Source: Rhizobium sp. Q54
GTDB taxonomy: Bacteria > Pseudomonadota > Alphaproteobacteria > UBA828
DNA length: 64,000 bases
Assembly (NCBI GenBank): GCA_945892755.1
Contig: CAMDDO010000004.1
Coordinates: forward strand, 3,099 to 67,098
Direction of reading: 5' to 3'
Part shown: positions 18,468-49,557 of the stretch, piece by piece
Position numbering within the stretch: the first letter of the stretch is position 1
How the letters are laid out: each line of letters opens with the position of its first letter
Notes under the pieces: generated by a model
What the model was told of the DNA's origin: nothing
The model's input: only the letters and a program-made list of their open reading frames with translations
Databases searched by the model: none
Position numbers and translations under genes: made by a program

Positions 18468-18488
18468 AAATTCGGAAATACCGAATTT
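18468..18488. promoter_or_regulatory. AT-rich palindrome AAATTCGG-N5-CCGAATTT overlapping the LysR stop, upstream of the transporter operon
   Basis: Perfect 8-bp inverted repeat inside an unusually AT-rich stretch. On the minus strand it is followed by a TTTTT run, so it could instead be the lysR terminator. Confidence 0.3.
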
Positions 18489-19413: not shown

Positions 19414-19504
19414 CGAACCGCCTCGACCGATCGTCGATCGGCCTCATCGTGGCGGCGCTTCGCGGCGCGGTGCAGTCGCGAAGAGTCGCGCTCACACCGG
19501 CTGT

Positions 19505-21439: not shown

Positions 21440-22153
21440 ATGAACTTGGTCGTGCTGACCACCGACACATTGCATCACCGCCAATTCGTCCGGGCGGTTC
21501 AAGCCTCGAAGCCGATTGCCCGCGTCTTTGTCGAGACCGAAGCGCGCGCGCGCGCCGGCTTCGAAACCGCGCATCCGTTCGAGACCGCGCGCGAGCGGTA
21601 CGAAGCCCTGCATTGGTTTGGCGGCTCGCCGCCAGCGCTGGCTTCATTGGCGCCGAGCGAATCCTTCTCCAATCTGAATGCGCCGGAAGCCGTGCGGGCG
21701 ATCGCCCAGGCAAAGCCTGACGCGCTCATCGTGTTCGGCACTGGGCGATTGAACGAAGCGATCATCACCCTTTGCCCGGAACGCGCACTCAATCTGCACG
21801 GCGGCAACCCCGAGGATTATCGTGGCCTCGATACGCACCTCTGGGCAATTTATCACGGCGACTTCGCGGCGCTGGTCACCACGCTGCATCGACTCGCTTC
21901 CAAGCTCGATACCGGCGATGTCATCCAGATGCTGCCGCTCCCGCTCGTGCGCGACCTGGCGCTTCATGAGCTGCGCCGCGTCAACACCGATATCTGCGTC
22001 AAGCTCACGCTCGATGCGCTGGCCGAACTCGAACGGAATGGGCGATTTTCCGGCCGTGTGCAGCGCCGTGTCGGGCGCTATTACTCGTTCATGCCCGCTG
22101 TTTTGAAAGCGCTTTGCGTCGAGCGCTTTGCCCGCCATACGAGCCGGCTGTGA
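21440..22153 (+). CDS. formyltransferase-domain protein (Fmt N-terminal-domain-like, putative sugar N-formyltransferase)
   Basis: NLHGGNPEDYRGLDTHLWAIYHGD...TGDVIQ matches the N(I/L)H.SLLP.YRG...H..gD..TG formyl_trans_N core. Confidence 0.6.
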   Translation: MNLVVLTTDTLHHRQFVRAVQASKPIARVFVETEARARAGFETAHPFETARERYEALHWFGGSPPALASLAPSESFSNLNAPEAVRAIAQAKPDALIVFGTGRLNEAIITLCPERALNLHGGNPEDYRGLDTHLWAIYHGDFAALVTTLHRLASKLDTGDVIQMLPLPLVRDLALHELRRVNTDICVKLTLDALAELERNGRFSGRVQRRVGRYYSFMPAVLKALCVERFARHTSRL

Positions 22154-23067
22154 CCGAGCCTGAGCCGCAAACTTATGCGTCGCGCCTCGCGGCCGATGCG
22201 TTGACGATCTTTCTGTTTCACGGCGTCGTCGAGCGGCACGTGCACAAGATACGTAATTACACACGCAAACATATTGCGGCCAGGCGTTTCGCCAGCATTC
22301 TCGAGGCGTTGACAGCCGCTGGCACGGCGGTTTCGCTCGACGACGTGATCAAGATCGCGGCTGGGAAGGGGCGGTTGCCCGCGAATGCGTTCGCAATCAC
22401 CTTCGACGACGGGTTCCGGAACAACTTCACCGTCGCGGCGCCCATACTTGAGGCGAGGCAAATTCCAGCGACCTTCTACCTGACCACGGGATTCGTCGAA
22501 CACAATGGCATGTCGTGGATCGACCGCATCGAATACGCCATCGAATGCGTGCCGCAGGGGCGCGTCGCGCTGCCGGTCGGTGAGCGTGACTATCGAGACG
22601 CGGAAGGCGCGCGAGTCTTGCTCGAAGAAATTCGTACGGTGGTGAAAGCGGATCCTGGTATAGATGCCGACCGCTTTGCGAGTGAGGTGCAGCACGGGCT
22701 CGGCGTGCCCGAAACGCATGGCAGCAACGATCCGCTCGATCAAAAGCTCAATTGGGCCGAGGTTCGTGCCCTCGCGGCCGAAGGGCTGTTTCACGTTGGC
22801 GGACATTCCCACCGTCACGTCAATCTCGCTTTCCTGGACGCGGCGAGCCTCGCTCGCGAGATCGAGACCAGCCGCACACTGCTCGCCGAGCGCGCGGGAC
22901 TTAGCTGCCGGCATTATTCCTATCCCGAGGGGACGCCGAACGCCTATTCCGACACAGTCATCGCGGCGTTGAAGGGCATTGGCGTGCAATGTTGCCCCAC
23001 CGCAGAGGACGGTATCAATCCTCCGCCGTTCGATCTGTTTCGGCTCAAGCGCGTCATGGTGGTGTGA
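22114..23067 (+). CDS. polysaccharide deacetylase (NodB homology domain)
   Basis: AITFDDGFRNNF..ILE...IPATFY..TG. An alternative GTG start at 22150 overlaps the upstream stop. Confidence 0.75.
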   Translation: MRRALCPPYEPAVTEPEPQTYASRLAADALTIFLFHGVVERHVHKIRNYTRKHIAARRFASILEALTAAGTAVSLDDVIKIAAGKGRLPANAFAITFDDGFRNNFTVAAPILEARQIPATFYLTTGFVEHNGMSWIDRIEYAIECVPQGRVALPVGERDYRDAEGARVLLEEIRTVVKADPGIDADRFASEVQHGLGVPETHGSNDPLDQKLNWAEVRALAAEGLFHVGGHSHRHVNLAFLDAASLAREIETSRTLLAERAGLSCRHYSYPEGTPNAYSDTVIAALKGIGVQCCPTAEDGINPPPFDLFRLKRVMVV

Positions 23068-24077
23068 TGAAGCTGTTTGGAAAAGATTTGCCGCGCGAAG
23101 TCGCTATCGTCGCCGAGATCGGCGTCAATCACGAGGGCGATCCCGAAGCGGCGTTGAGGCTCATCAGGCTTGCGGCCGAGGCCGGTGCCGACGCGGTCAA
23201 GTTCCAAAGCTATACGCCGGCGCGTTATGCCGCATCGAACGATGCCGAGCGGCTCGCGCGCGTCGGTCGCTTCGCGCTCGACGAGACGACGCATGAGCGC
23301 CTCGCCGCCGAGGCCAAGGCGCGCGGCATTCACTTCTTTTCCACGCCCTTGAGCGAGGATTGGGTGCCGGTGATTGCGCGCTTGGGCGCGGCGATCAAGA
23401 TCGCGAGCGGCGATCTGACGTTCGAGCCCGTGATTCGTGCCGCCGCGCGCACTGGCAAGCCGGTGATCGTCTCGACCGGGCTCGGCACCGATGAGGAGAT
23501 CGACCGCGCGGTCGGCTGGCTCACGGAGGAAATCGGCGCCGGGCAGCTCGGTGAGCGGGTCGTGTTGCTCCATTGCGTGGTTGCCTACCCGACGCCGATC
23601 GAGGAGGCCAATCTCCTGGCGATCCCGTTTCTCGCCGAGCGCTATCGCGTGCCGATCGGCTATTCCAATCATGTCATGGGGCTCGATGCGTGCTTCGGCG
23701 CGGTTGCGCTCGGCGCCTGCGTGCTCGAGGTCCACGTGACGGATCGGCGCGAGGGCCGCACGTTCCGCGATCATCAATTGTCGCTGCTGCCGGACGAGCT
23801 CGCCGAGCTGGTGCGCCGCACGCCGGGTTTCCGCGCGGCGCGCGGCGGCTTCGGCAAGCCGCGCCAACCGAGTGAGCTCGCGGCCCTGCAGGCCGTGCGA
23901 AAAGGCGTCGTCGCGGCGCGTGATCTTGCGGCCGGCACCGTGCTCGCACGCGACGATCTGATGTATGCGCGGCCGGCGACCGAGTTCGCCGCGAGCGAGC
24001 TTGGCACGCTGATCGGCCGTCGACTCAAGGCGGACCTCAAAAGCGGCATGCTCGTGCCGCGTGGTGGTGTCGCCTAG
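23067..24077 (+). CDS. NeuB/LegI-family nonulosonic acid synthase (N-acylneuraminate-9-phosphate synthase fold + SAF domain)
   Basis: IVAEIGVNHEGD (NeuB-type IAEIGxNHxG motif), PIGYSNH, C-terminal SAF domain. Confidence 0.85.
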   Translation: MKLFGKDLPREVAIVAEIGVNHEGDPEAALRLIRLAAEAGADAVKFQSYTPARYAASNDAERLARVGRFALDETTHERLAAEAKARGIHFFSTPLSEDWVPVIARLGAAIKIASGDLTFEPVIRAAARTGKPVIVSTGLGTDEEIDRAVGWLTEEIGAGQLGERVVLLHCVVAYPTPIEEANLLAIPFLAERYRVPIGYSNHVMGLDACFGAVALGACVLEVHVTDRREGRTFRDHQLSLLPDELAELVRRTPGFRAARGGFGKPRQPSELAALQAVRKGVVAARDLAAGTVLARDDLMYARPATEFAASELGTLIGRRLKADLKSGMLVPRGGVA

Positions 24078-24079: not shown

Positions 24080-25903
24080 ATGTGCGGGATTGCCGGCGTA
24101 ATCGCCGCCGCGCCGCCCGATCCGGCGCGCGTGCGCGCGGCGCTTGCGACCATGAAACAGCGCGGACCCGATGCCGAGGGCGTGCATCAGGGCCGGCTCG
24201 GCAATCATGCCGTCACGCTCTTGCACACGCGACTCTCGATCATCGATCTCGATCCGCGCGCCAATCAGCCCTTCGTGCGCGATGGGCTCGCGCTTAGCTA
24301 TAATGGCGAGCTCTATAATTACCTCGAAGTGCGCGCCGCGCTCGAAGCGCTTGGCCATCGCTTCACCACGCAATCCGATACCGAGGTGCTCATCGAGGCC
24401 TATCGCGCCTGGGGCGAGGCGTGTCTCAACCGCTTCGAGGGCATGTGGGCGTTCGCGCTGCTCGACGAGGCGAAGGGAAGGCTGTTCCTGAGCCGCGACC
24501 GCTTCGGCGAGAAGCCGCTTTATACGATGCGGAAGGATGGCGCGCTTTATTTCGCCTCCGAAGTGAAGGCGCTGGCCGCGCTCGCCGGCTCATGGCCCGC
24601 GCCCGATCGCGCGCAAATCAGGCGCTATCTGGTGAACGGCTATAAGGCGCTCTACAAACAACCGGCGAGCTGGTTCGAGGGCGTGCGCGAGCTGCCGGCG
24701 GCGCATTATGCCGCGATCACCGAGCCGCTCAGGGTCGAGCCCAAGCGCTATTGGAGGCTCAGCTATTCGCCCGAGGCCATGTCGCTCGCCGACGCGCGGG
24801 ATGGCGCGCGCGAGCGCCTGTTCGAGGCGGTGAAACTGCGTCTTCGCGCCGACGTGCCGATCGCGTTTTGTCTGTCCGGCGGCATCGATTCGAGCGCGCT
24901 CGCCGGCATCGCGGCCAAGCATTTCGGGCAAGAGCTGCACGCCTTCTCGGTGGTCGATTCCGATCCGCGCTATGACGAGCGCGACAACATGACCGCGACG
25001 GTCGATTTTCTGGGCTGCGCGCATCATGTCGCTCATACCTCGACCGAAGGCTTCTTCGACCGGCTTGACCGCCAGATCGCCTATCACGACGCCCCGGTCG
25101 CCACCATCACCTATTACATGCACGCCTTCCTTTCCGAGGCGATTCACCAAGCGGGCTTCAAGGTGGCGATCTCGGGCACCGCGGCCGATGAGATGTTCAC
25201 CGGCTACTACGACCATTATGGCTTCTGGCTCGCCGAGATGAGCGCGCGGCGGGATTTTCCCGCGCTGCTCGACGATTGGCGCGGGAGTTACGGCCGATAT
25301 GTCCGAAACCCGGTGCTGCAAGACCCGCTCGTCTTCCAAAACAACCCCGATGAGCGCGGTCATATTTTTCTCAATGCCGAATTGTTCACCGGTTTTCTGG
25401 CCGCGCCGTTCGACGAGGGCTTCGAGGAAGCGCCCTATGGCGACAACCTCTTGCGCAAGCGCATGCTGAACGAGCTGTTCCACGAGTGCGTGCCGGTCAT
25501 CCTGCACGAGGACGATCTGAATTCGATGATGGTCTCGGTCGAGAATCGCTCGCCCTATCTCGATCGCGCGCTGACCGAGTTTCTGTTCCGCGTGCCGGCC
25601 GAACACCTGATCAAGGATGGCTATGTCAAGTTCCTGCTGCGCGCGGCGGTCGACGGGCTGGTGCCGGATTCGGTCCGGCTCGACAAGAGGAAGCGCGGCT
25701 TCAACGCCTCGATCGATTCATTGATCGACAGAAAAAACCCGGACACGCGCGCGCGGCTGCTCGATGGCAGCCCGATTTTCGATCTGGTGCGGCGCGAGGC
25801 GGTCGAACGCTTTCTTGACGCCGATATGACCGATAACTCGTTCTCGAAATTCCTGTTCAGCTTCGTCTCGGCCAAGATCTTCATGGACCGGCACGCGGCC
25901 TGA
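24080..25903 (+). CDS. asparagine-synthetase-family (AsnB-like) glutamine amidotransferase
   Basis: MCGIAG N-terminal nucleophile and SGGIDSS PP-loop. Typical of PseA-like amidotransferases in nonulosonate loci. Confidence 0.85.
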   Translation: MCGIAGVIAAAPPDPARVRAALATMKQRGPDAEGVHQGRLGNHAVTLLHTRLSIIDLDPRANQPFVRDGLALSYNGELYNYLEVRAALEALGHRFTTQSDTEVLIEAYRAWGEACLNRFEGMWAFALLDEAKGRLFLSRDRFGEKPLYTMRKDGALYFASEVKALAALAGSWPAPDRAQIRRYLVNGYKALYKQPASWFEGVRELPAAHYAAITEPLRVEPKRYWRLSYSPEAMSLADARDGARERLFEAVKLRLRADVPIAFCLSGGIDSSALAGIAAKHFGQELHAFSVVDSDPRYDERDNMTATVDFLGCAHHVAHTSTEGFFDRLDRQIAYHDAPVATITYYMHAFLSEAIHQAGFKVAISGTAADEMFTGYYDHYGFWLAEMSARRDFPALLDDWRGSYGRYVRNPVLQDPLVFQNNPDERGHIFLNAELFTGFLAAPFDEGFEEAPYGDNLLRKRMLNELFHECVPVILHEDDLNSMMVSVENRSPYLDRALTEFLFRVPAEHLIKDGYVKFLLRAAVDGLVPDSVRLDKRKRGFNASIDSLIDRKNPDTRARLLDGSPIFDLVRREAVERFLDADMTDNSFSKFLFSFVSAKIFMDRHAA

Positions 25904-27027
25904 TGCGTTATTGCACGCGCTGCATTCTGCCCGACACGCGGCCCGGCATCACGCTCGATGGTTCAGGCGTGTGTTCGGCCTGTCGCGGCCATGACGACAA
26001 GGAACATCGCATCGATTGGGCGGCGCGGCGCGCGGCGTTCGAGCGCCTCGTGGCGGAGACCAAGGCGCACAACGCCGCCTATGACTGCGTGGTGCCGGTC
26101 TCGGGCGGCAAGGATAGCTGGTATCAAGTGATCACCGCGCGGCGCCACGGCCTGAAGCCGCTCGGCGTGACTTGGAAGCCGCCCGGGCGAACTCCACTCG
26201 GGCAAAAAAATCTCGATGCCATGATCGCCGCGCTCGGCATCGATCATATCGACTACACGATCTCGCCCGACATCGAGCGGCGTTTCATGAAAGCCGCGTT
26301 CGAGCGCAAGGGCGCCTCGGCGATCCCGATGCACATGGCGCTGTTCGCGATTCCAATTCGGCTCGCCACGCAATTCGGTATTCCGCTCATGGTCTGGGGC
26401 GAAAACCCGCAACTCGAATTCGGCGGCGCGGAGGCTGATCGGCTCGCCACTGATCTCGACCTCGACTGGGTGCGCCGCCATGGCGTGACCAACGGCACCG
26501 CGGTCGATGATTGGATCGGCGCCGAAGGCCTCGGCGTCGAGGATCTCGCCGCCTTTCGTCTGCCAGCGGCCGATTCGTTCAAATCGGGCGTGCGCTCGAT
26601 CTTCCTCGGGTCTTATTTCAAATGGAGCAGCTTCGAAAACGCGCGCCTCGCCGCCGAGCACGGCTTCACGCTGGGCGACGCGCCGGCGACGGGGGCGTGG
26701 AACTTCGCCGATCTCGACGACCGCTTCATCTCGATCCATCACTTTCTCAAGTGGCACAAATTCGGCCTGACGCGCGCCTTCGATAATCTCTCCGTGCAAA
26801 TCCGCTTCGGCCGGACGACGCGCGACGAGGCGATCAAGACGCTGAGGTCTCTCGGCGTGCAGGAGCCGCGCGAGGATATCGAGGCGTTTTGCGAATTCGT
26901 GCGGCAACCGCTTCCTTGGTTCCATGAGATCGCCGAGCGCCACCGCAATCCGGCGATCTGGCAAAAGCGCGGCAATAATTGGGTGATCGACGGCTTCCTG
27001 ATCGAGGATTGGGACTGGTCGCAATGA
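25903..27027 (+). CDS. N-acetyl sugar amidotransferase (WbuX/LPS-biosynthesis PP-loop family)
   Basis: N-terminal CxxC...CxxC zinc ribbon (CTRCILPDT...GVCSAC) and PP-loop VPVSGGKDSWYQ. Confidence 0.75.
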   Translation: MRYCTRCILPDTRPGITLDGSGVCSACRGHDDKEHRIDWAARRAAFERLVAETKAHNAAYDCVVPVSGGKDSWYQVITARRHGLKPLGVTWKPPGRTPLGQKNLDAMIAALGIDHIDYTISPDIERRFMKAAFERKGASAIPMHMALFAIPIRLATQFGIPLMVWGENPQLEFGGAEADRLATDLDLDWVRRHGVTNGTAVDDWIGAEGLGVEDLAAFRLPAADSFKSGVRSIFLGSYFKWSSFENARLAAEHGFTLGDAPATGAWNFADLDDRFISIHHFLKWHKFGLTRAFDNLSVQIRFGRTTRDEAIKTLRSLGVQEPREDIEAFCEFVRQPLPWFHEIAERHRNPAIWQKRGNNWVIDGFLIEDWDWSQ

Positions 27028-27821
27028 GTGAGGCCTGCCCGATGTGCGACGGCGCGGCGCTTGCGCTCCTTCATCGGTTCGACGCGCGGCCCGAGGGCGA
27101 AAACGATTTCGGCTTCATGCCCTATCGGCGCGAATTATGGCGCTGCGGGGCCTGCGGGCATGTCATCAACCGGCATGATTTTCCGCTCGATCGGCTCTAT
27201 GCCGCGAGCTATGTCGACGCGGTCTATGGCGCGCGCATGGAACAGGATTTCGCGCGCATCATGGCGTTGCCGCCCGAGCGCTCCGACAATCGCCAGCGCC
27301 TGAATCGCGTCGAGGCCTATGTCGCGGCGCGCGGCCCCGGCCTGCCGCGCCGCGCGCTCGATGTCGGCGCGGGCCTCGGCGTGTTTCCCGCCGCGCTCGT
27401 CGAAGCGGGATGGGACTGCCTCGCGATCGACCCCGACCCGCGCGCGACCGCCCATATCGAGACGCATACGCGCGCCACGGCGCGCTGCGGCGATTTCGCC
27501 GCTTTGCCGCCCGAGCGGCGCTTCGCGCTGGTGAGTTTCAACAAGGTGCTCGAGCATGTGCGCCCGATGGTCACGATGCTCGCGCGCTCGAAGGAGTGGC
27601 TGTTGCCCAGGGGTCTCGTCTATGTCGAATTGCCCGATGGCGAAGCCGCGCTCGAGGCCGGCCCCGCGCGCGAGGAATTCTTCGTCGAGCATTTTTGCGC
27701 CTTCAGCCTGGCGTCCTTCGCGCTGCTCGCCTTGAAGGCGGGCTTTCGCGCCGAGCGCGTGGAGCGCATTCGCGAGCCGAGCGGCAAATACACGCTCTTT
27801 GGGTTTCTGTCGGCGGCATGA
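27024..27821 (+). CDS. class I SAM-dependent methyltransferase with N-terminal Cys4 zinc ribbon
   Basis: CPMCDG...CGACGH, then a LDVGAGLGVF glycine-rich SAM motif. Confidence 0.7.
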   Translation: MSEACPMCDGAALALLHRFDARPEGENDFGFMPYRRELWRCGACGHVINRHDFPLDRLYAASYVDAVYGARMEQDFARIMALPPERSDNRQRLNRVEAYVAARGPGLPRRALDVGAGLGVFPAALVEAGWDCLAIDPDPRATAHIETHTRATARCGDFAALPPERRFALVSFNKVLEHVRPMVTMLARSKEWLLPRGLVYVELPDGEAALEAGPAREEFFVEHFCAFSLASFALLALKAGFRAERVERIREPSGKYTLFGFLSAA

Positions 27822-28570
27822 GCGAAGCGGCACGCAAGGACGTGGAAAGCGCCGTGTTGGAGCCGCAGCCCTTCGAGGCGGAATTTCTGGGCGGGCCGTG
27901 CTTTCGGCTCGTCACGTCAGCCGAGGCAGGCGCCAAGGAGATTGGACGCGCCATGACCGGCTTGATGGCGCGGCCGGAAATTCGTGGCGCGAAACTGATC
28001 ACGGCGCGCGTGCCGGGGCCCGATGCGGGCACGATCGGCGCGCTGGAGCGCGCGGGCTTTCGGCGCATCGAAACATTGATCACCTTCGAGCGCGCGCTGA
28101 ACGACTCCGATACGCCGGAGGCGGGCGATGTCGTGCGCCAGGCGCGACCCGACGATGCCGCCGCCTGCATCGAGATCGGCCGCTCGGCGTTTCATACCGA
28201 CCGCTTCCACGCCGATCCGCGCATCCCGAAGGCGGCGGCCGATGCGCTCAAGGCGCGCTGGGTCGCCAATGATCTGAACGGCCGGGCCGATGCCGCGTTC
28301 GTCGCTCTGGCCGAGGGGCGCCCGGCCGGTTTCAACCTGTGCCTGAAGCGCCAATCGGTCGCCGTGATCGATTTGATCGCCGTGGACCAGGCGCGGCGCG
28401 GGCGGGGCCTCGGCGCCGCCTTGGTCGCGGCGAGTCTCGCTCATTATGCGAAGAGCGCGCGCACCATGCAGGTTGGCACCCAGGCCAATAACGCCGCCTC
28501 GATCGCGCTTTATCGGCGCTTCGGCTTCGCGCCCATCGCCGAAGCCGTGACCTTGCATTGGATGGCATGA
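27818..28570 (+). CDS. GNAT-family N-acetyltransferase (WecD/PseH-like)
   Basis: C-terminal GNAT core VDQARRGRGLGAALV...ALYRRFGF. Confidence 0.7.
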   Translation: MSEAARKDVESAVLEPQPFEAEFLGGPCFRLVTSAEAGAKEIGRAMTGLMARPEIRGAKLITARVPGPDAGTIGALERAGFRRIETLITFERALNDSDTPEAGDVVRQARPDDAAACIEIGRSAFHTDRFHADPRIPKAAADALKARWVANDLNGRADAAFVALAEGRPAGFNLCLKRQSVAVIDLIAVDQARRGRGLGAALVAASLAHYAKSARTMQVGTQANNAASIALYRRFGFAPIAEAVTLHWMA

Positions 28571-29571
28571 TGCGCGCGCTCAAGGCCGGCGTGATCGGGC
28601 TCGGGGTCGGCGAGCGCCATGGCGCCGCCTATCAGGCCGAGCCCGGCTGCGAGCTGGTCGCGCTCTGCGATCTCGATGAGAAGCGCCTGAAAGAGGTCGG
28701 CGACCGGCTCGGCGTCGCGGAACGCCACACCGATTGGCGCCGCATCACCGAGCATCCCGAGCTCGATGTCATCTCGATCTGCTCCTATGACGATTGCCAT
28801 GCCGAGCAAGCGGTTTCCGCGTTTCGTCATGGCAAGCACGTCATGGTCGAAAAGCCGGCGGCGCTGCACCGCGCCGAGGCCGAGGCGATGCTGCGCGCCA
28901 TGACCGACAGCAAACGTCTGATCACTTCGAATTTGATCCTGCGCAAGAGCCCGCGCTTCATCGCCGTGCGCGACATGATTCGTGACGGGCGTTTCGGTGA
29001 AATCTTCTATCTCGAAGGCGATTACATCCACGAGATTCTGTGGAAGATCGTCACGGGCTGGCGCGGCCGCATGCCGTTCTACTGCGTTACCTATGGCGGC
29101 GGCATTCATTTGATCGACCTGATGCGCTGGCTGATGGGGCAGGAGATCGTCGAGGTTTCCGGCATGGGTAACAAGCTGGCCTCGCGCGGCGCCGACTTTC
29201 CCTATCCTGACACCATCGTCAATCTCATGCGCTTCGAGGGCGGCGCGCTGGCCAAGAGCCTCACCACCTTCGCGCCGCAACGCCCGCAAATTCACGCGCT
29301 CTCGATCTATGGCTCGCGCGCGACCTTCGTCAACGACATGCCCAACGCCAAATTGTTCGGCGGCAGCAAGCCGGAAGACGAAACCCCGATGCGCGCGCCC
29401 TATCCGGCGATCGAGAAGGGCGCGCTGCTGCCCGATTTTCTCGCCGCAATCCGCGAGGGGCGCGAGCCCGAAATCGGCGCGCGAGATATTTTTCGCGTCA
29501 TGGATGTGTGCTTCGCGGCCTGGGAATCGGTCGAGGCCGGGCACACGGTCAAGGTGAGCTATCTGATCTGA
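28567..29571 (+). CDS. Gfo/Idh/MocA-family NAD(P)-dependent oxidoreductase
   Basis: KAGVIGLGVGERHGAAY Rossmann start and EKP motif (VMVEKPAA). Confidence 0.8.
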   Translation: MMRALKAGVIGLGVGERHGAAYQAEPGCELVALCDLDEKRLKEVGDRLGVAERHTDWRRITEHPELDVISICSYDDCHAEQAVSAFRHGKHVMVEKPAALHRAEAEAMLRAMTDSKRLITSNLILRKSPRFIAVRDMIRDGRFGEIFYLEGDYIHEILWKIVTGWRGRMPFYCVTYGGGIHLIDLMRWLMGQEIVEVSGMGNKLASRGADFPYPDTIVNLMRFEGGALAKSLTTFAPQRPQIHALSIYGSRATFVNDMPNAKLFGGSKPEDETPMRAPYPAIEKGALLPDFLAAIREGREPEIGARDIFRVMDVCFAAWESVEAGHTVKVSYLI

Positions 29572-30731
29572 TGAGCGAGCCCAGGATCATTCCGTTCGGC
29601 CGGCCGATGATCGGCGCGGAGGAACAGGCGGCGGTCGCGCGCGTGCTCGCCGGCCCGCAGCTCGTGCACGGGCCGGCCGCCCATGATTTCGAGACCCGCT
29701 TCGCCGCCCGGGCCGGCGTCGCGCACGCCGTTTCGGTGTCATCCTGCACGGCGGGACTGCATCTTGCGTTGCATGTTCATGGCATCGGGCCGGGCGATGA
29801 GGTGATCGTGCCGGCCATGACCCATGTCGCGACCGCGCACGCGGTCGAATATTGCCGGGCGAGGCCGGTCTTCGTCGATGTCGATCCCACGAGCGGTAAT
29901 CTCGATCTCGAGGCGCTCGAGGCGGCGATCGGACCGAACACGCGCGCCATCATGGTGGTGCATTTTCTCGGCCTGCCGCCCGACATGACGCGGCTGCGCG
30001 CGATCGCGAAAAAGCACGATTTGCTCGTGGTCGAGGATGCCGCGCTCGCGCTTGATGCGAGCTATGATGGCGTCAAGGCCGGCGGACTTGGCGATGTGGC
30101 GAGTTTCTCGTTTTACCCGACCAAGCACATGACGACCTCCGAAGGCGGCATGGTGACGACCAACGATGCCGAAATCGCCCGGCGTGTCGCCGCGATGAAG
30201 GCGTTCGGCTATGACAAGACGCTCGACGAGCGCACCCGCCCCGGCATCTATGACGTGACCGCGCTCGGCTACAACTACCGCATGAGCGAGGCCCACGCGG
30301 CGATCGGGCTGGCGCAATTGGCGAAGCTCGATGGCTTTCAGGCCGCGCGCGCCGCGAACTTCAAGGCGCTCAGCGACGGCCTCGCCGATTGCGCCGAGCT
30401 CATGGTGTTCGCGCCCGCGCAAGGCAAGGGGCGCTCGTCGCATTATTGCCTGAACGCGATGCTGCCGCGCGATGGCGGGATCGCGCGCGACGATGTGGTG
30501 GCGCAGCTAAAAGCCAAGGGCATCGGCACCAGCGTGCATTATCCGAGCGCGGTGCCGCTATTCGCCTATTATCGCGAGAAATATGGCTACCGCGCGGGTC
30601 AGTTTCCGGTCGCCGAATGGCTCGCCCGGGCGACCATCTCGCTGCCGGTCGGACCGCATCTCGAACCGGGCGATCCGGCGCGCATCGCCAATTCGCTCAA
30701 GGCCGCGGTCGCGGTCGCCGAGGCGCGCTAG
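29571..30731 (+). CDS. DegT/DnrJ/EryC1/StrS-family PLP sugar aminotransferase
   Basis: SFSFYPTKHMTTSEGG with PLP lysine; fold-type I sugar aminotransferase. Confidence 0.85.
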   Translation: MSEPRIIPFGRPMIGAEEQAAVARVLAGPQLVHGPAAHDFETRFAARAGVAHAVSVSSCTAGLHLALHVHGIGPGDEVIVPAMTHVATAHAVEYCRARPVFVDVDPTSGNLDLEALEAAIGPNTRAIMVVHFLGLPPDMTRLRAIAKKHDLLVVEDAALALDASYDGVKAGGLGDVASFSFYPTKHMTTSEGGMVTTNDAEIARRVAAMKAFGYDKTLDERTRPGIYDVTALGYNYRMSEAHAAIGLAQLAKLDGFQAARAANFKALSDGLADCAELMVFAPAQGKGRSSHYCLNAMLPRDGGIARDDVVAQLKAKGIGTSVHYPSAVPLFAYYREKYGYRAGQFPVAEWLARATISLPVGPHLEPGDPARIANSLKAAVAVAEAR

Positions 30732-30738
30732 GCGCGCC

Positions 30739-31845
30739 ATGAGACAGGAGACAAGAACCGCCGTGATCGATCCGTCCTATCAAGCCGCGCTCGACCGCCT
30801 GAAGCCGCATCGCATTCTGTTGGTCGGCGGGGCCGGCTTCATCGGACACAATCTCGCGCTCGAACTCGGCCGCCATGGCCAGAGCGTCATGGTCGCCGAC
30901 AATCTGATGGTGAACAATCTGGTGCAGAACGTGTCGTCGGCGCAAATGGCGCCGGTGCAACGCAGGCTCTATCAGAATTTCCTGCTCGACCGATTCATCT
31001 TGATGCGCGACGGCGGCGTCAATTTTCGCAATGTCGATGCGCGCAATTCGATTGAGATCGCGCGCGTGTTCGACGAGTTTCAGCCGACCAAGATTGTCCA
31101 TCTGGCTGCCATCGCGAGCGCGGTGGAGGCACGGAAGGATCCCGGCCTGGCTTTCGATCTTCAGCTCGTCACGTTTAGGAACGTGCTCGAGCAAGCGCGA
31201 CTGAGCCATGGCCGGGTCAACCAGGTCATGTTCATGAGTTCGAGCACGGTCTATGGCGATTTCGAGGGGGCGGAAGTTGACGAGATGACCCGGCCGCAGC
31301 CTGAGGGCATTTATGCCAATGGCAAGTATATGGGTGAACGATTAGCCCGCACCTATGCGACGCAACACAATGTTCCTTCGATCATTGTGCGACCTTCGGC
31401 GCTTTATGGCGAGCGCTGTGTGAGCCGTCGGGTCTCACAAGTCTTTGTCGAGAATGCATTGTCGGGTAAGCCCTTGCTGCTCGAAGGCGGCGGCGATGGC
31501 CGTCTCGACTTCACTTACATCAAGGACCTTGTCGATGGGATGGTGCGCGGCTTGGCTATTGATTGCCAAGCCGGGTACACCAACACCTACAATCTGACTT
31601 ATGGCAACGCTCGCACGGTGGCGGACCTGGCCGCGGTGGTAAAAAGCGTGGTGCCGGAAGCTAAGCTCGAGGAACGGCCGCGCGCCGCCGATAAGCCGAT
31701 TCGCGGCACGCTTTCGACCCAACGCGCCGCGCAAGAACTCGGCTTCCGCGCGGCTTGGCCGCTCGAAACCGGATACCGTCGATACTGTGAATGGTACGTC
31801 GCTGAGTGGCGCAAGGCGGAGGCTCAGTGCCGCTCGGCCTCGTAG
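30739..31845 (+). CDS. NAD-dependent epimerase/dehydratase (extended SDR)
   Basis: ILLVGGAGFIGHNL Rossmann motif, YxxxK region (YANGKY). Visibly lower GC than neighbours. Confidence 0.8.
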   Translation: MRQETRTAVIDPSYQAALDRLKPHRILLVGGAGFIGHNLALELGRHGQSVMVADNLMVNNLVQNVSSAQMAPVQRRLYQNFLLDRFILMRDGGVNFRNVDARNSIEIARVFDEFQPTKIVHLAAIASAVEARKDPGLAFDLQLVTFRNVLEQARLSHGRVNQVMFMSSSTVYGDFEGAEVDEMTRPQPEGIYANGKYMGERLARTYATQHNVPSIIVRPSALYGERCVSRRVSQVFVENALSGKPLLLEGGGDGRLDFTYIKDLVDGMVRGLAIDCQAGYTNTYNLTYGNARTVADLAAVVKSVVPEAKLEERPRAADKPIRGTLSTQRAAQELGFRAAWPLETGYRRYCEWYVAEWRKAEAQCRSAS

Positions 31846-32552
31846 TTTTCGCGCGCATGGATTCGCGCCGGCTGCCTGGCAAGGCGTTGTGCGATATCGC
31901 CGGTCGGCCATTATTGGGACGCGTGCTCGACCGCGTACGCGCGGTTCACTCCGCGCCGCCGATTGTCGTGGCCACTTCGGCGCGCGCGGTCGACGATCCG
32001 ATCGCGCGCTTCGCCAAGGCGGAGGGTGTGGGATTGTTCAGGGGTGATGCCGCGGATGTGCTCGGCCGCGCTCTGGCCTGCGCGGATCATTTCGCATTTT
32101 CGGCGATCATCCGCATCTCAGGCGATAGTCCTTTCATAGACCCCGGCCTGATCAAGCAGTGCGTCACCCGCTTCGAGGCCGTGCCGGAGATCGATTTGGT
32201 GACCAATGCCATGCCCAAGACATTCGCACCCGGATTGAGCGTCGAGGTGATCGCGACCGAGGCTCTGCGCCGCGCTTCAAGAGAGGCCACCGCAACCGAT
32301 GAGCGGGAGCATGTGACGCTATATTTGTATCGGCACGCGGCACGGTTTCGAATCGAGAATATCGCGGCGCCCGATGAGCGTTACCTTGGCATCACGCTCA
32401 CCATCGATGAACCGGGCGATCTTGACCGCGCGACCTGGATCGCCCAGGCGCTCGGGCCACGCGCCGCGAGCGCGCCGCTCGACGAGGTGGTCGCCCTCGC
32501 GCGCCGCTTCGGTGCCGAACGCTCGCCGGAGGTCGTGCATGGACGTGCGTGA
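31806..32552 (+). CDS. acylneuraminate cytidylyltransferase-family protein (SpsF/PseF-like), copy 1
   Basis: VVFARMDSRRLPGKAL motif of the CTP_transf_3 family. An alternative GTG start lies at 31825. Confidence 0.75.
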   Translation: MAQGGGSVPLGLVVFARMDSRRLPGKALCDIAGRPLLGRVLDRVRAVHSAPPIVVATSARAVDDPIARFAKAEGVGLFRGDAADVLGRALACADHFAFSAIIRISGDSPFIDPGLIKQCVTRFEAVPEIDLVTNAMPKTFAPGLSVEVIATEALRRASREATATDEREHVTLYLYRHAARFRIENIAAPDERYLGITLTIDEPGDLDRATWIAQALGPRAASAPLDEVVALARRFGAERSPEVVHGRA

Positions 32553-32916
32553 GCGAAAACCACCCCGTCGGTTTGCGGTCGGTCCGAAGGGGGCACAGGC
32601 GACGCTCGCCCATTGTGCCGACGTCGCGCTCGAGCCTGACGAGATGGTCAGCTTCGTTACCGCGAGCGGCACCGAGTTCGACGTGGTGCGCAAGGCCTGG
32701 GGCTATTACGCGACGCCCTCGCTCAATGCGCGACTGCCCGAGAAGGGCCTGCGGCCGGCCCTGGTCGGCAGCACGACGCGGCGTTATGTATTGCTGGCCG
32801 AACCCGCCAGGCTCGATGAATTCCACGCCTATCTGAAGAGTCAGCACATGACGGTCATCGCCTGGCTCGATGTCGACGAGGTGGTGTCGGTGAAATCGGC
32901 CAGTGAGCATTCCTGA
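32539..32916 (+). CDS. small (125-aa) uncharacterised protein, tandem paralog A
   Basis: GGAGG RBS 7 nt upstream, 14-nt overlap with the upstream gene. No known motif. Confidence 0.5.
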   Translation: MDVRERKPPRRFAVGPKGAQATLAHCADVALEPDEMVSFVTASGTEFDVVRKAWGYYATPSLNARLPEKGLRPALVGSTTRRYVLLAEPARLDEFHAYLKSQHMTVIAWLDVDEVVSVKSASEHS

Positions 32917-32940
32917 CATGAGCCGGCATGGAGATCGTGG

Positions 32941-33297
32941 ATGAAGGCCAAGCTGAGAAGCGAGCCGCGCCGCTTCACGCCGCTTGTGGGCCTCGAGATC
33001 CGCGACTGCGGCGCTATCGAGCTCGGTATCGACGAGCAGATCACGGTTACGACCGAGACGGGCATCGGCAACGACATCGTCCGCAAGGAGTGGGGCTTCT
33101 ACCTCTCGAACTCGCTGAACGCCAATCTCACCGCCAAGGGTTTCAAGACCGCGCTCGTCGTGAGCCATGCCAGCACCCCGCCGCGCACTTATCTCAACCT
33201 CGTCGAGCGCGACAAGATGGCGGCATTCGAGGCGTATCTGCGCGCGTTCAACGCGCGTGTCGCCTGTTGGCTCGACGAATGGCCGACCTCTGGTTGA
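32941..33297 (+). CDS. small (118-aa) uncharacterised protein, tandem paralog B
   Basis: Aligns colinearly with paralog A (VRKxWGxYxxxSLNAxLxxKG..xALV.....RxYxxLxE...xxxFxAYL.....xxxWLD). Confidence 0.5.
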   Translation: MKAKLRSEPRRFTPLVGLEIRDCGAIELGIDEQITVTTETGIGNDIVRKEWGFYLSNSLNANLTAKGFKTALVVSHASTPPRTYLNLVERDKMAAFEAYLRAFNARVACWLDEWPTSG

Positions 33298-33311
33298 GTT
33301 TGTAGAGAGAC

Positions 33312-35147
33312 ATGACACGCATCGCCGGAATCGCAAGCGGCGCCCCGCCAGACATCGCGGCTGCCATGGTATCGCGTATGACGGTGGGGAGTACCGCATG
33401 CGTGAGCCTATGTGTTGCACAGATCGGGCTGGCCTCCAGCGATGCCAAGAATGGCTGGTTCGATGACGGCCACGTCGTCGTTGCTTTCGATGGGCTGGTC
33501 TATAACCGTGACGAGTTCGACGCGCTTGAAACGATGTCCGATGCCGCCGTGCTCGCCGCGCTCTACCGGCGCTACGGCATGCCCGGCGCGCTTCACCGAC
33601 TGAACGCGGATTTTGCCTGTGCGCTCTTCGATCGCGCGCAACGGAGGCTCTACCTGGCGCGCGATCGCTTCGGCGTGAAGCCGATGTACTACGTTGCGAG
33701 CGGCGCATTGGTCGCGTTCGCGTCGCGGCTTGCGGGGCTGTTTTGCCTGCCGGGCGTCGATCTTGCCCCCCGTCCGGACTATCTGGCCACGATGGCGGCC
33801 GGACACTATCGCTTTTTCGACAATCCGCCCGAGGCCACGCCCTATCGCGGACTCGCCCAATTGGCCCCCGGCATGGTGCTCACCATCGCCAATGGCTCGG
33901 CGTCATTGTCGCGTTGGTACGCGCTTGAGGATCAAGGTGACGATCCGCGTTCGTTCCAAGATTTGACGGAAGCCTATCGGGTGTTGTTTTTCGACTCGGT
34001 CAAGCGTCGCCTGGCGCGCGTCGATCGGCCTGCCTTCTCGCTTTCGGGCGGTCTCGATTCGAGCTCGGTCGCGACCAGTGCGGCGCTTATCTCGGGGACG
34101 CCGTCACGGGCCTATTCGACTGTCTATGATGGCGCCGCCTATGACGAGACGGCCGAGATTCGCGATGTTCTTGAAGGCGGCAGGATCGAGTGGCAACCAA
34201 TCGAACTCGGCACCTTCGATCTCTTTGCCGAGGTCGCACGCCTTACGGCGCGGCACGATCAGCCGCTCTCGACCGTCACCTGGCTGGCGCACGCGGTGCT
34301 CTGCGAAAAAATCAAAGCGTCGGGTCATGGCGGGATCTTGGGTGGTCTCGGTGGCGATGAGCAACACGCCGGCGAGTATGATTATTTTTTCTATTTCTTC
34401 GCTGATTTGAAGGCCGCCGGTGATGAGGCGCGACTTGCCCACGAAATCGCGTGTTGGCAGCGCCATCACGATCACCCGGTCTGGCGCAAGACGCCGGGGG
34501 TGGCCGCGATGAAGATGGCACGGTTGACCGATTGCTCCGTGCCCGGCCGGGTGATCGCGGACGTCGATTTGCTGGCACGCTATCAAGAAGCGCTGTCGCC
34601 GGATGCGCGCTCGGCGGTCGCGCCGACGCTTGAAAACCCATTCCAGAGCTACCTCAAGAGCCACGCCTACAACGAAATCTATCGCGAGACGATGCCCTGT
34701 TGCTTACGCGCCTCGGAGCGCAACACCGAAGCACTCGGGCTCACCGACGCATTTCCGTTTTTCGATCACCGACTGGTCGAGCTCGCCTTTCGTGTGCCAA
34801 GTGTGCTCAAGATCAGGGACGGCGTGACGAAGCAACTCTTGCGCACCGCGATGAAGGGGACGCTACCGGAGAAAACGCGCACGCGGATCGCCAAGACAGG
34901 GTGGAATGCGCCGCTCCATCAGTGGCTGGCGGCGCGCTATAAGGCGCCCCTGCTCGATCTGGTGCGCAGCCGCGCCTTCCGCGAGCGCGGACTCTATCGG
35001 GCGAACGTCGTCGAACATTTGATCGAGGAGCATGCCACGATCGTTGAAAGCGGTGCGCCGCGCGACAACCACATGATGTTCTTGTGGCAGTTGATCGGCC
35101 TCGAGCTTTGGCTGAACGGCTTGGCCCAGGCCAGAAAGGCAGCCTAG
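33312..35147 (+). CDS. AsnB-like amidotransferase paralog lacking the N-terminal Cys nucleophile
   Basis: Starts MTRIAGI instead of MCGIAG; the PP-loop LSGGLDSS is retained. Confidence 0.8.
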   Translation: MTRIAGIASGAPPDIAAAMVSRMTVGSTACVSLCVAQIGLASSDAKNGWFDDGHVVVAFDGLVYNRDEFDALETMSDAAVLAALYRRYGMPGALHRLNADFACALFDRAQRRLYLARDRFGVKPMYYVASGALVAFASRLAGLFCLPGVDLAPRPDYLATMAAGHYRFFDNPPEATPYRGLAQLAPGMVLTIANGSASLSRWYALEDQGDDPRSFQDLTEAYRVLFFDSVKRRLARVDRPAFSLSGGLDSSSVATSAALISGTPSRAYSTVYDGAAYDETAEIRDVLEGGRIEWQPIELGTFDLFAEVARLTARHDQPLSTVTWLAHAVLCEKIKASGHGGILGGLGGDEQHAGEYDYFFYFFADLKAAGDEARLAHEIACWQRHHDHPVWRKTPGVAAMKMARLTDCSVPGRVIADVDLLARYQEALSPDARSAVAPTLENPFQSYLKSHAYNEIYRETMPCCLRASERNTEALGLTDAFPFFDHRLVELAFRVPSVLKIRDGVTKQLLRTAMKGTLPEKTRTRIAKTGWNAPLHQWLAARYKAPLLDLVRSRAFRERGLYRANVVEHLIEEHATIVESGAPRDNHMMFLWQLIGLELWLNGLAQARKAA

Positions 35148-35151: not shown

Positions 35152-36702
35152 ATGAGCCAGGAATCGCGGCGCGACCGACCGGTGGTCATCATCCAGATGA
35201 TGAACCAATATGCCGATCTCCTGAGCGCGCTCGCCAAGGCACTGAGCGAGAATTACGGCATCGGCTCGATCCTGATCCATCGCGGGCCGGGCGATCTGCC
35301 CAACCCGAAGCGCTATCATTTTGACAAGACGGCGTTCGATGAGTTGCTCGACATCGAATCTATCCTCGCGCCACGCGCCATTGAAAATTTACCCCGCACC
35401 GCCGCGCTCGCGGCCGAGATCGCGACGGTCGAGCAGAGGCTTTCGATCAAATTGCTTGAAGCGGTGCGCGCGGATCGCCATCTCGGTCGCGGCTTTGTCG
35501 TCGGCGCGGTCTATGCGCGTTCGCGCTATGGTATTTCAGTCGATTTCGATCAGAGCCTCGATATCGCGCTCCGCCTCGCATGTCGATTCGAAGAGCTTTA
35601 TCGCTCCCGCGAGGTCGTGGCGGTGATCGGCGCGATATCTTCGATCCATGGCAATCTGATGGTCAGCGTGGCCGAGGGCCTCGGCCTGCCGGTGCGGCAG
35701 CCCAATTTGACGAACAACACGCGGCTTTATTGGGCGGTCGATCGCCATTTCCGGCCGCTTGATTTCGAGGCCTCGCTGGCGCGCGCGCTGCAACAAGGCA
35801 ATGCGCGCGCCGAACTCGGCACCACCGCGCGCGCGGCCGGCGTGATCGCGAGCCTGCCTCGGCAAACCACCTGGCGCTATCTCGCGCGAGCCATCTATCG
35901 CGCGACGCGGCGCGAACTCGGCCATCGGCTCAAGCGGCGCGATCAGGTCTATGGCAAATATCTCTGGGGCGATCTGCTGAAGACGATCATCGGCACATGG
36001 CGGCTGCGTCGTGCCGCGCGCAAGGCGACGCCCGTATTGCCGACGCTGCCCGCCGGCCTGCCCTATGTGTTTCTGCCGTTTTCGGTCGAGCCCGAATCGA
36101 CCCTGATGGCCGAATCGCCGACCTGCGACAATCAACTTGCCTTGATCGATTGGGTCGCCAAGGCGATGCCGAGCGGCTGGCGCCTCCTCGTCAAGGAACA
36201 CCCGGCCTTCACCGCGCCCCGCCCCGCGGGCTTCTGGGAGCGGGTGCGCGCCTACCCGAACGTGGTCGTGTTAGCGCCGCTCGAGCGCGGCGAAGATGCC
36301 ATGCGCGGCGCCAAGGCGCTCGCGATCATCCGCAGTTCGCTCGGCTTCCAGGCCGCCGCGCTCGGCATTCCGGTCGTCACGCCGCATCCGGCCTATTATG
36401 GCGCGAGCCTGCCGCACGTCTTCATCGTCGAATCCTATCGCGCGATGGAAGCGGCCTTGCGCAAGATCGCGCGCGACGAGCTGCCGCCGATCGCGCTGCG
36501 AATCCAAGCGTTTCAGGCCTTGCACACTGTCTTCGACGAGGCGAGCCTGCCGATCGCCGATCCGAACCTGATTCGCGGCGTGGCCGGCGGGCGGGAGATC
36601 GACCCGGGCGAGGTGGGCCTAATCGTCCGATCGCTCGCCGAGAGTCTGAACCTCGGGTCCGGCGAAGTGGCGCGCGCGCTTCTGCTAAAGGGTGTCAGAT
36701 GA
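35152..36702 (+). CDS. capsule-polysaccharide-biosynthesis (KpsC/KpsS/LpsZ/RkpZ-like) putative glycosyltransferase
   Basis: LLVKEHP motif and surrounding GT-B-like C-terminal half resemble the Capsule_synth family. Assignment is from memory of the motif. Confidence 0.5.
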   Translation: MSQESRRDRPVVIIQMMNQYADLLSALAKALSENYGIGSILIHRGPGDLPNPKRYHFDKTAFDELLDIESILAPRAIENLPRTAALAAEIATVEQRLSIKLLEAVRADRHLGRGFVVGAVYARSRYGISVDFDQSLDIALRLACRFEELYRSREVVAVIGAISSIHGNLMVSVAEGLGLPVRQPNLTNNTRLYWAVDRHFRPLDFEASLARALQQGNARAELGTTARAAGVIASLPRQTTWRYLARAIYRATRRELGHRLKRRDQVYGKYLWGDLLKTIIGTWRLRRAARKATPVLPTLPAGLPYVFLPFSVEPESTLMAESPTCDNQLALIDWVAKAMPSGWRLLVKEHPAFTAPRPAGFWERVRAYPNVVVLAPLERGEDAMRGAKALAIIRSSLGFQAAALGIPVVTPHPAYYGASLPHVFIVESYRAMEAALRKIARDELPPIALRIQAFQALHTVFDEASLPIADPNLIRGVAGGREIDPGEVGLIVRSLAESLNLGSGEVARALLLKGVR

Positions 36703-36745
36703 TTCCTTTCGCGCCAATCGATGCGTCCCTCCAAGAGATTACGTC

Positions 36746-49553: not shown

Positions 49554-49557
49554 TCGC

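Follow-up and report, generated by a model that had tools for sequence, protein, structure and literature searches.

The stretch of DNA analysed here, 64,000 nucleotides of Rhizobium sp. Q54 (GenBank assembly GCA_945892755.1, contig CAMDDO010000004.1; hereafter the window), carries a gene module in which a WbuX-type N-acetyl sugar amidotransferase and a Zn-ribbon S-adenosylmethionine (SAM) methyltransferase (MT_Zn) are accompanied by two AsnB-like proteins, one with the glutaminase cysteine (AsnB_Cys) and one devoid of it (AsnB_noCys, below Cys-less AsnB). As a joint explanation we propose that WbuX and MT_Zn would form and methylate an amidine, that AsnB_Cys would supply the nitrogen, and that the Cys-less AsnB would act in tailoring; the probability that these three parts hold together seems to us evenly balanced. 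All functional statements made here are drawn from sequence and gene context. The genes of the module in the window are the following.

24080..25903, + strand: AsnB_Cys, class-II glutamine amidotransferase of 607 aa, MCGIAG start, TIGR01536 at 393 bits
25903..27027, + strand: WbuX-type N-acetyl sugar amidotransferase of 374 aa, TIGR03573 at 306.5 bits
27024..27821, + strand: MT_Zn, Zn-ribbon SAM methyltransferase of 265 aa, Methyltransf_23 E 1.2e-17, boundaries set by synteny with contig L002
32539..32916, + strand: small1, 125 aa, unannotated family
32941..33297, + strand: small2, 118 aa, paralogue of small1 with 37% identity
33312..35147, + strand: AsnB_noCys, Cys-less AsnB-like protein of 611 aa, MTRIAGI start, upstream TAG

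All four genes named in an earlier reading of the bare DNA (the sequence-only reading) were recovered on the + strand with the boundaries given there, while the two small open reading frames (ORFs) at 32539-32916 and 32941-33297, which that reading had missed, belong to the same system. The gene boundaries were compared with those of two syntenic contigs from metagenomes, L002 and L003. The order NeuB1-AsnB-WbuX-MT is kept with stops and starts that overlap or abut at 25903, 27024-27027 and 27818-27821, and therefore the genes form one operon. Since they are flanked by sets of NeuB, CMP-transferase, PseB/PseC-like, formyltransferase-like and deacetylase genes, their setting is, as judged by homology, nonulosonic-acid biosynthesis and modification, with a predicted legionaminic- or pseudaminic-like operon core.

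The identity of the WbuX-type PP-loop amidotransferase, as it had been proposed from its sequence, is borne out by the TIGR03573 score (306.5 bits vs. a cut-off of 203.2, profile positions 1-342 of 344), by its motifs, and by the match to the Legionella N-acetyl sugar amidotransferase structure 8WEX (E 3.8e-36), which is the only solved member of the WbuX family. The N-acetyl sugar amidotransferase (NASAT) family is defined by the PP-loop SGGxDS and the tetracysteine motif CxxCxn[GN]xCxxC (PMC10607449). In the window protein, these are represented by SGGKDS at residues 67-72 and by C4-x2-C7 ... G22-V-C24-x2-C27, and both are invariant among 19 WbuX orthologues. The start of the methyltransferase gene overlaps the WbuX stop by 4 nt, and the N-terminal ribbon of its product reads CPMC...CGAC, in agreement with the Zn-ribbon SAM methyltransferase that had been recognized directly behind WbuX. 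MT_Zn accompanies the WbuX subtype of the window (WbuX1) in 30 of 33 loci.

By homology, WbuX 25903-27027 is predicted to convert an N-acetyl to an acetamidino group, and by analogy to PtmH we infer that MT_Zn N-methylates the amidine. In the first step of the proposed mechanism, WbuX with ATP would activate the N-acetyl carbonyl of a (probably CMP-linked) sugar and exchange O for NH, and MT_Zn, aided by small1 and small2, would then N-methylate the resulting acetamidino group in parallel to the PtmG/PtmH pair. Such chemistry is known, and its assignment to the window would follow from homology and precedent. The amidine route suggested by the sequence-only reading thus gains a nonulosonic-acid cluster and the PtmG/PtmH precedent, but it loses the Cys-less AsnB as a part of the amidine machinery, as discussed below; the expected mass change from acetyl to acetimidoyl is about -0.98 Da, and not the +41 given there.

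The paralogues small1 and small2 match no Pfam or NCBIfam model and have no fold relative in the PDB. The former accompanies WbuX1 in 31 of 33 loci. An exhaustive profile search with the small1 family retrieved 472 cluster representatives, and among the best 148 of them, in which the architectures were read, small1 stands alone in 109 and is fused to the N-terminus of a Zn-ribbon methyltransferase in 32. Tandem duplicates like the window pair (e.g., P0241) were found in four, and single cases concern a small1-MT_Zn-MTc protein, a small1 + GNAT protein, and an AsnB_Cys + small1 protein (P0378), the latter probably a frameshifted read-through. Both small proteins appear to be accessory domains of the Zn-ribbon methyltransferase.

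The gene at 24080-25903 encodes, as had been read from its MCGIAG start, a canonical AsnB-like protein, with a TIGR01536 score above the cut-off (393 vs. 267 bits) and the motifs MCGIAG, YNGELYN and SGGIDS; its orthologues retain Cys1, NGE[IL]YN and SGGxDS. The SGE of E. coli AsnB aligns with SGT in AsnB_Cys, which replaces Glu348 by Thr, and the orthologues have SG[TS][AG]ADE at this site and PV[IV]LHE at the site of Asp384 and Arg387. Because these residues, which on the basis of AsnB literature we take to be catalytic and aspartate-site residues, are replaced, AsnB_Cys is probably a dedicated enzyme of the superfamily rather than an asparagine synthetase. Its stop overlaps the WbuX start at 25903, and the two genes are translationally coupled.

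No HisH/HisF (WbuY/WbuZ) pair adjoins WbuX 25903-27027, and an AsnB-like gene lies upstream of it instead. The absence of HisH and HisF, already noticed from the sequence, holds for the whole window: cyanobacterial HisH/HisF used as tblastn queries reached no E-value better than 0.48, and the large ORFs, scanned with Pfam, contain neither. It is a feature of this system and not a trait of the WbuX protein family. The window proteins were used as tblastn queries, with paralogues resolved by best score and the best 80 loci taken in each scan; the loci are not phylogenetically independent, and many metagenome contigs are incomplete. As the gene set was met again in 160 loci retrieved for comparison (designated by L numbers), its arrangement is not due to chance.

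The scan with Cys-less AsnB, limited to one genome per species, gave 80 loci from more than 15 phylum-level groups, including Alpha-, Beta- and Gammaproteobacteria, Desulfobacterota, Myxococcota, Nitrospira and Cyanobacteria, and further Acidobacteria, Binatia, Verrucomicrobia, Actinobacteria, Bacteroidetes, Elusimicrobia and Planctomycetota. Among the cultured carriers, Methylocystis sp. B8 and Afipia birgiae 34632 have the gene organization of the window, and Algihabitans albus ac2 and Leptolyngbya sp. PCC 6406 that with HisH/HisF. Two types of organization can be distinguished. Type 1, that of the window, is AsnB_Cys-WbuX-small1-MT_Zn-(MTb-MTc)-Cys-less AsnB and is contiguous in about 30 loci, while in the lineage of the window (L002-L004, L009, L011) MT_Zn and small1 are set apart by five inserted sugar-pathway genes. 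Type 2 is DUF4910-HisH-WbuZ/HisF::WbuX fusion-MTa-MTb-MTc-Cys-less AsnB. MTb and MTc gave only generic class-I methyltransferase matches.

Gene content within 10 kb was counted in the 55 species-level Cys-less AsnB loci with at least 6 kb of upstream sequence. Any WbuX-type gene is present in 48/55 of them. WbuX1 with AsnB_Cys and no HisH/HisF occurs in 26/55, HisH with HisF::WbuX2 and no AsnB_Cys in 14/55, and both WbuX1 and WbuX2 with HisH/HisF but no AsnB_Cys in 3/55; no WbuX was found in 7/55. A WbuX1-seeded scan of metagenomes, with the 19-sequence alignment as a query, provided 80 further loci. Where at least 2 kb of upstream sequence was available, AsnB_Cys was located directly 5' of WbuX1 in 33/44 loci and elsewhere in the locus in seven (40/44 in total), and two of the four loci without AsnB_Cys have adjacent HisH/HisF. 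AsnB_Cys is missing where HisH/HisF are adjacent (L049, L077, L131, L155), and many WbuX1 loci have no other glutaminase within +/-10 kb.

The complementary distribution of AsnB_Cys and HisH/HisF suggests that AsnB_Cys is the nitrogen-donor partner, and on these comparative grounds we infer the second step of the mechanism, in which AsnB_Cys would hydrolyse glutamine and replace the HisH/HisF ammonia pair for this WbuX subtype. AsnB_Cys is probably, to judge from its sequence and neighbours, the glutamine-dependent nitrogen donor for WbuX, and not the ordinary gene for which it had been taken, as it appears to occupy the place of HisH/HisF.

An alternative to which we would give a substantial minority of the probability is that AsnB_Cys works independently of WbuX and amidates a carboxylate, such as C-1 of the nonulosonate or an acyl substituent, while WbuX would use free ammonia or distant HisH/HisF. 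The conservation of the PP-loop, Cys1 and NGE, as in a self-contained two-domain amidotransferase, is what this would predict; moreover, to our knowledge, all AsnB-family members act on carboxylates, and the Tannerella AsnB is located in a cluster for a pseudaminic-acid glycan, which reportedly includes an amidated uronic acid. Such independence would not account for the presence of AsnB_Cys, nearly always adjacent, in 40/44 loci of one WbuX subtype, for its loss beside HisH/HisF in the four loci mentioned above, or for the many WbuX1 loci with no other glutaminase within +/-10 kb.

The second AsnB-like gene of the window, at 33312-35147, starts with MTRIAGI and has no cysteine, as had been observed before, and this proves to be a family-wide trait. 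The in-frame codons upstream are TAG(33303-33305)-AGA-GAC-ATG; with a stop two codons 5', no upstream start that would restore the cysteine is possible for this gene, which removes the first objection that the sequence-only reading had named against itself. The family has over 1,400 relatives in a large protein collection, of which the best 120 score more than 570 bits with 43-80% identity. Among these, 99/120 start with M-x-R-[ILV], where x is S in 52, A in 29, G in 6, T in 6 and P in 4, that is, one of these five in 97/99, giving the signature M-[SATGP]-R-I-A-G. Residues S, A, G, T and P at position 2 permit the removal of initiator Met, and Ala, Gly and Pro are not nucleophiles. The loss of Cys1 is family-wide, extends over more than 15 phylum-level groups and is not a sequencing artefact; an upstream start or a sequencing error at 33312 was rejected on account of the upstream TAG and the family-wide N-terminal motif. 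In a public gene call, the identical protein (P0001) has 581 aa, starts at Met31 and is deprived of the conserved N-terminus, which looks like a mis-annotation by 30 codons too late.

Residues of the Cys-less family were mapped onto E. coli AsnB, human ASNS and the paralogue AsnB_Cys, with the use of 41 aligned homologues ranging down to 43% identity with the window protein. Over the 611 residues, identity per column averages 59%, and about 90 columns do not vary. The glutamine site N74-G-E76 is changed to D60-G-L, and the Arg49 motif of AsnB has no counterpart, while R3, D60, G61 and N65 of this pseudo-glutaminase domain are invariant or nearly so. In the adenylation domain, the PP-loop (S245-G-G-L-D-S250), the D/E pair of metal ligands after the glycine-rich loop, K528 (the equivalent of Lys449) and R466 (the equivalent of Arg387) are invariant. 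Glu348 is replaced by Leu within GGLGGDE, a motif present in 91/95 orthologues, and Asp384 by Cys within an invariant PCC (PCCLRA in 86/95). The protein scores under every curated NCBIfam cut-off, including that of TIGR01536 (207.5 vs. 267.1 bits, with the match from profile position 69), and its nearest solved relatives, TsnB9 (7YLZ), ASNS, AsnB, beta-lactam synthetase and CarA, are all remote. By these features, the Cys-less AsnB is a predicted pseudo-glutaminase with an intact, re-tooled adenylation domain. Its identity with a lasso-peptide cyclase or a beta-lactam synthetase was dismissed on profile scores (189 bits vs. a cut-off of 525 for the lasso-peptide cyclase model NF033535), active-site residues and context.

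Whereas the Cys-less AsnB is seldom found without a WbuX nearby, many WbuX loci have no Cys-less AsnB, and the latter is also indifferent to the type of the nitrogen donor; this argues that it has no part in ammonia delivery. Its conserved adenylation site and the behaviour of characterised Cys-less AsnB relatives suggest an amide-forming role, and it is more likely, by sequence and analogy, to be an ATP-dependent amide-forming tailoring enzyme, while the invariant Cys-Cys pair may leave room for other chemistry. In the third step of the mechanism, the Cys-less AsnB, without glutaminase activity and outside ammonia delivery, would act as an optional tailoring enzyme after amidine formation, on the already amidinated sugar. 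It would adenylate a carboxylate and close an amide with a nucleophile other than glutamine-derived ammonia; the reacting groups may be, for instance, C-1 of the sugar and the nitrogen of the amidine or of an amino group, or an acid or amine from outside.

That the Cys-less AsnB could instead be an ammonia-dependent amidotransferase, converting a sugar carboxylate (e.g., C-1) to a carboxamide with free NH3, we consider improbable. C1A mutants of AsnB retain ammonia-dependent activity, and the intact adenylation machinery and the retained equivalent of the carboxylate ligand Arg387 are in keeping with such a function. The equivalent of Glu348 is, however, an invariant Leu, and all characterised Cys-less AsnB relatives, as far as we know, use substrate-borne amines and not ammonia; carboxylate amidation would also leave the WbuX neighbourhood (48/55) unexplained.

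Another possibility, the one favoured by the sequence-only reading, assigns the Cys-less AsnB to the amidine machinery, as a subunit that would use free ammonia or channel ammonia or substrate between AsnB_Cys and WbuX. The two AsnB paralogues are collinear, have subfamily-specific motifs in common (28% identity, E 6e-44) and occur together in 26/55 loci, and the conserved residues R3, D60, G61 and N65 could mean a retained binding or tunnel role. The same protein, however, accompanies HisH + HisF::WbuX in 14/55 loci without AsnB_Cys and is absent from 8/20 WbuX1/AsnB_Cys loci with at least 8 kb of downstream sequence (present in 12/20). Seven genes separate it from WbuX in the window, and elsewhere it follows methyltransferases and does not adjoin WbuX, the gene directly 5' of it being MTc in 41/66 loci. 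A strictly conserved adenylation site would, in addition, be superfluous for a passive subunit, and we regard this role as quite unlikely. A decaying or purely structural, non-catalytic pseudoenzyme, suggested by the loss of the glutaminase nucleophile and Gln-binding residues and by the TIGR01536 score below the cut-off, is scarcely credible given the 59% mean column identity over 611 residues in 41 homologues, about 90 invariant columns including the PP-loop, metal ligands and lysine, and a family spread across more than 15 phylum-level groups.

Several points weigh against the three-step explanation. Housekeeping or paralogous hisH/hisF may be present elsewhere in the source genome, outside the 64-kb window. 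AsnB_Cys keeps its own PP-loop and may complete an amidation itself rather than feed WbuX, and no class-II (N-terminal nucleophile, Ntn) glutaminase is known to us to pass ammonia on in trans. Separate inheritance of two cassettes, and not the substitution of a function, could account for part of the complementary distribution; the cases that would decide the matter (WbuX1 with HisH/HisF but without AsnB) are limited to about five, some of them related, and gene assignments depend on tblastn thresholds in loci that are not phylogenetically independent. Glu348 is needed for adenylate formation in AsnB, and with Leu at this position the chemistry of the Cys-less AsnB may differ from carboxylate adenylation. 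The Cys-less AsnB has no WbuX within 10 kb in the 7/55 loci counted above, and the likeness of MT_Zn to PtmH is drawn from gene content and context. A stronger claim, that an AsnB-type Ntn enzyme feeds WbuX in trans and that the Cys-less family performs a new ATP-dependent reaction on amidino-nonulosonates, appears doubtful to us; this reaction may be an acylation or lactamisation via the amidine or amino nitrogen, or may involve the chemistry of the two invariant active-site cysteines.

The module is a part of a roughly 36-kb nonulosonic-acid island in which all sugar genes, between about 21.4 and about 60 kb, lie on one strand. The composition scan gave a G+C content of 0.60-0.68 throughout the window and hence no compositional signal of a foreign origin of the island. 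The genes next to the module, or inserted in it, are listed below.

21440..22153, + strand: formyltransferase-like gene, Pfam Formyl_trans_N E 1.8e-9, NCBIfam formyltransferase matches below cut-off
22114..23067, + strand: polysaccharide-deacetylase-family gene, Pfam Polysacc_deac_1 E 1e-19, recurring beside the formyltransferase-like gene
22989..24077, + strand: NeuB1, NeuB-family nonulosonic acid synthase, Pfam NeuB E 3e-60 and SAF domain
27818..28570, + strand: GNAT N-acetyltransferase, Acetyltransf_1 E 7e-15, 250-aa call in syntenic L002
28558..29571, + strand: Gfo/Idh/MocA oxidoreductase, Pfam GFO_IDH_MocA N- and C-terminal domains
~29568..30731, + strand: DegT-family pyridoxal phosphate-dependent aminotransferase, DegT_DnrJ_EryC1 E 3e-116, 387-aa call in L002
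~30766..31845, + strand: short-chain dehydrogenase/reductase-type epimerase/4,6-dehydratase-like gene, Pfam Epimerase and GDP_Man_Dehyd, weak LegB match (TIGR04180, 64 bits)
~31827..32552, + strand: cytidylyltransferase of the CMP-sugar synthetase family, the first of three copies in the island, CTP_transf_3 E 7e-26
35152..36702, + strand: 516-aa protein of no family, starting 5 nt past the AsnB_noCys stop, weak Capsule_synth match (E 0.0095) below cut-off

NeuB1 is located immediately 5' of AsnB_Cys in most related loci. The formyltransferase-like and polysaccharide-deacetylase genes (21440-23067) directly precede NeuB1, and this trio is found in about 12 distant loci (L012, L021, L056, L065, L067, L068, L075, L084, L103, L106, L132, L143). 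The formyltransferase-like gene 21440..22153 probably belongs to the same sugar pathway, and the product of 22114..23067 is possibly a sugar de-N-acetylase. The 516-aa protein is possibly a CMP-sugar-dependent transferase; its homologue adjoins Cys-less AsnB in L001-L003 and L007 and occupies another position in the loci L004, L008 and L009. As it is a neighbour only in the closest relatives, it was discarded as an obligate partner of the Cys-less AsnB.

Further downstream, the region 36692-41398 contains a second set of sugar genes, encoding a CMP-transferase, Gfo, DegT, a 376-aa protein of unknown function and GNAT. The region 41449-57282, which resembles the gene list of the Legionella serogroup 6 O-antigen, encodes PseB/PseC-like ... 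PseG-like proteins, a second NeuB (PseI-like), a third CMP-transferase, a GNAT::class-III aminotransferase fusion and an aldo-keto reductase. In total, the island has three cytidylyltransferase and two NeuB genes. Three large ORFs without a Pfam match (43768-45744, 47509-49284 and 50249-51751; ~660, 591 and 500 aa) are possible glycosyltransferases, and homologues of the 591-aa one stand beside DUF4910 genes in L005, L028, L030 and L057. The island ends (57317-60409) with a gene for a 1030-aa fusion of a sulfotransferase with a complete ATP-binding cassette (ABC) exporter (transmembrane and ATPase parts), weak homologues of which lie near Cys-less AsnB in L016, L029, L076 and L081.

Certain related loci show other arrangements. 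In L020 (5177-7246), a 689-aa WbuZ(HisF-like)::WbuX fusion is encoded beside HisH, with homologues in L018-L085; in the type 2 locus of Leptolyngbya PCC 6406, one 689-aa protein matches both TIGR03572 (257 bits) and TIGR03573 (304 bits). Such a natural fusion supports a direct hand-over of ammonia from HisF to WbuX in the classical system. The type 2 locus of Algihabitans albus is near fliD and a tetratricopeptide repeat protein gene. Both cassettes, AsnB_Cys-WbuX1... and HisH-HisF::WbuX2..., stand side by side in L042, L100, L102, L107 and L142, and the genomes with two cassettes may install two amidines, e.g., on both N-5 and N-7. In L005 (= L025) of Terriglobia (15328-20458), the module is followed by DUF4910, FkbH-like, a 76-aa ORF of the size of an acyl carrier protein (ACP), and MaoC/acyltransferase genes, a set which suggests that an ACP-borne glyceryl-type acyl group is also added to the sugar.

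Nonulosonic acids decorate flagella, S-layers, capsules and lipopolysaccharide (LPS), and surface charge as well as phage and immune recognition are determined by the N-acyl and amidino groups that they carry. While the amidine/N-methyl route itself is already known, the literature searched contained no account of a pairing of AsnB_Cys with WbuX, of small1 as an accessory domain or of the Cys-less AsnB subfamily. Our analysis defines a conserved module of AsnB_Cys, WbuX, small1·Zn-ribbon methyltransferase, optional MTb and MTc, and Cys-less AsnB, which is spread over environmental bacteria from many phyla. It suggests, in a form open to experiment, where WbuX may obtain its nitrogen when HisH/HisF are missing, and it draws attention to a Cys-less AsnB subfamily, large and sharply delimited, that may catalyse a new sugar-tailoring reaction. 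If true, an Ntn donor acting in trans or the proposed chemistry of the Cys-less AsnB would be unprecedented, and more than 15 phylum-level groups would possess an undescribed class of sialic-acid-like sugars. The database annotation also requires correction, as both AsnB_Cys and AsnB_noCys are labelled "asparagine synthase", and P0001 has a late start.

Among solved structures, the best relatives of both paralogues are the hydroxyamidotransferase TsnB9 (7YLZ), E. coli AsnB (1CT9) and human ASNS (6GQ3), with which they have the two-domain fold and PP-loop in common. In comparison with AsnB and ASNS, AsnB_Cys has Thr at Glu348 and PV[IV]LHE in place of the Asp384/Arg387 motif, and the Cys-less protein additionally has no Cys1, Asn74 or Glu76; probably, neither is an asparagine synthetase. 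Beta-lactam synthetase (1JGT), CarA (1Q15) and lasso-peptide cyclases are likewise Cys-less with the PP-loop adenylation domain kept, and they form an amide from an adenylated carboxylate without glutamine. The profile of the Cys-less family detects 1JGT at E 1.7e-24 and 1Q15 at E 1.3e-5. The similarity is remote. The Cys-less AsnB, with Leu at that position, does not have the Tyr348/Glu382-type dyad of beta-lactam synthetase, and its neighbours are sugar-pathway genes only, unlike in beta-lactam clusters or those for ribosomally synthesised and post-translationally modified peptides (RiPPs). By analogy, the Cys-less AsnB may work like the lactam synthetases and cyclases without being a member of their families.

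With regard to AsnB-like enzymes in nonulosonic- or pseudaminic-acid pathways, the only related report in the literature searched concerns AsnB of Tannerella forsythia (Tanf_01265) from the Pse5Am7Gra O-glycan cluster, for which its authors proposed, untested there, a function in acetamidino formation. This gene resembles that of the window, by description only, in its position in a pseudaminic-acid cluster, but the proposal concerns AsnB alone, whereas the module described here always includes a WbuX-type enzyme. The deacetylase/formyltransferase pair at 21440-23067 resembles an arrangement in the Kuenenia nonulosonic acid (NulO) cluster, associated with sugars that have a free or formylated amine (bioRxiv 10.64898/2026.04.20.719630).

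WbuX/WbuY/WbuZ of E. coli O145, WbpG-HisH2/HisF2 of P. aeruginosa O5 and AglX/Y/Z represent the same TIGR03573 family and the conversion of N-acetyl to acetamidino. This classical system corresponds to the type 2 architecture of the relatives (HisH with WbuZ::WbuX, as in L020), while the window and about 40 related loci are without HisH/HisF and have a class-II AsnB-like gene in their place. The pairs PtmG (Cj1324)/PtmH (Cj1325), from Campylobacter, and ORF28/ORF8, from Legionella, form CMP-Leg5Am7Ac and then CMP-Leg5AmNMe7Ac (PMC3766260; bioRxiv 10.64898/2026.04.20.719630). As in these systems, the second of which is from the L. pneumophila LPS locus, the window contains a WbuX-family gene with an adjacent SAM methyltransferase gene in a nonulosonic-acid cluster with NeuB and CMP-transferase genes. 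It differs from them by the AsnB-like amidotransferase 5' of WbuX, by the Zn-ribbon type of the methyltransferase with its small accessory proteins, and by the attached Cys-less AsnB.

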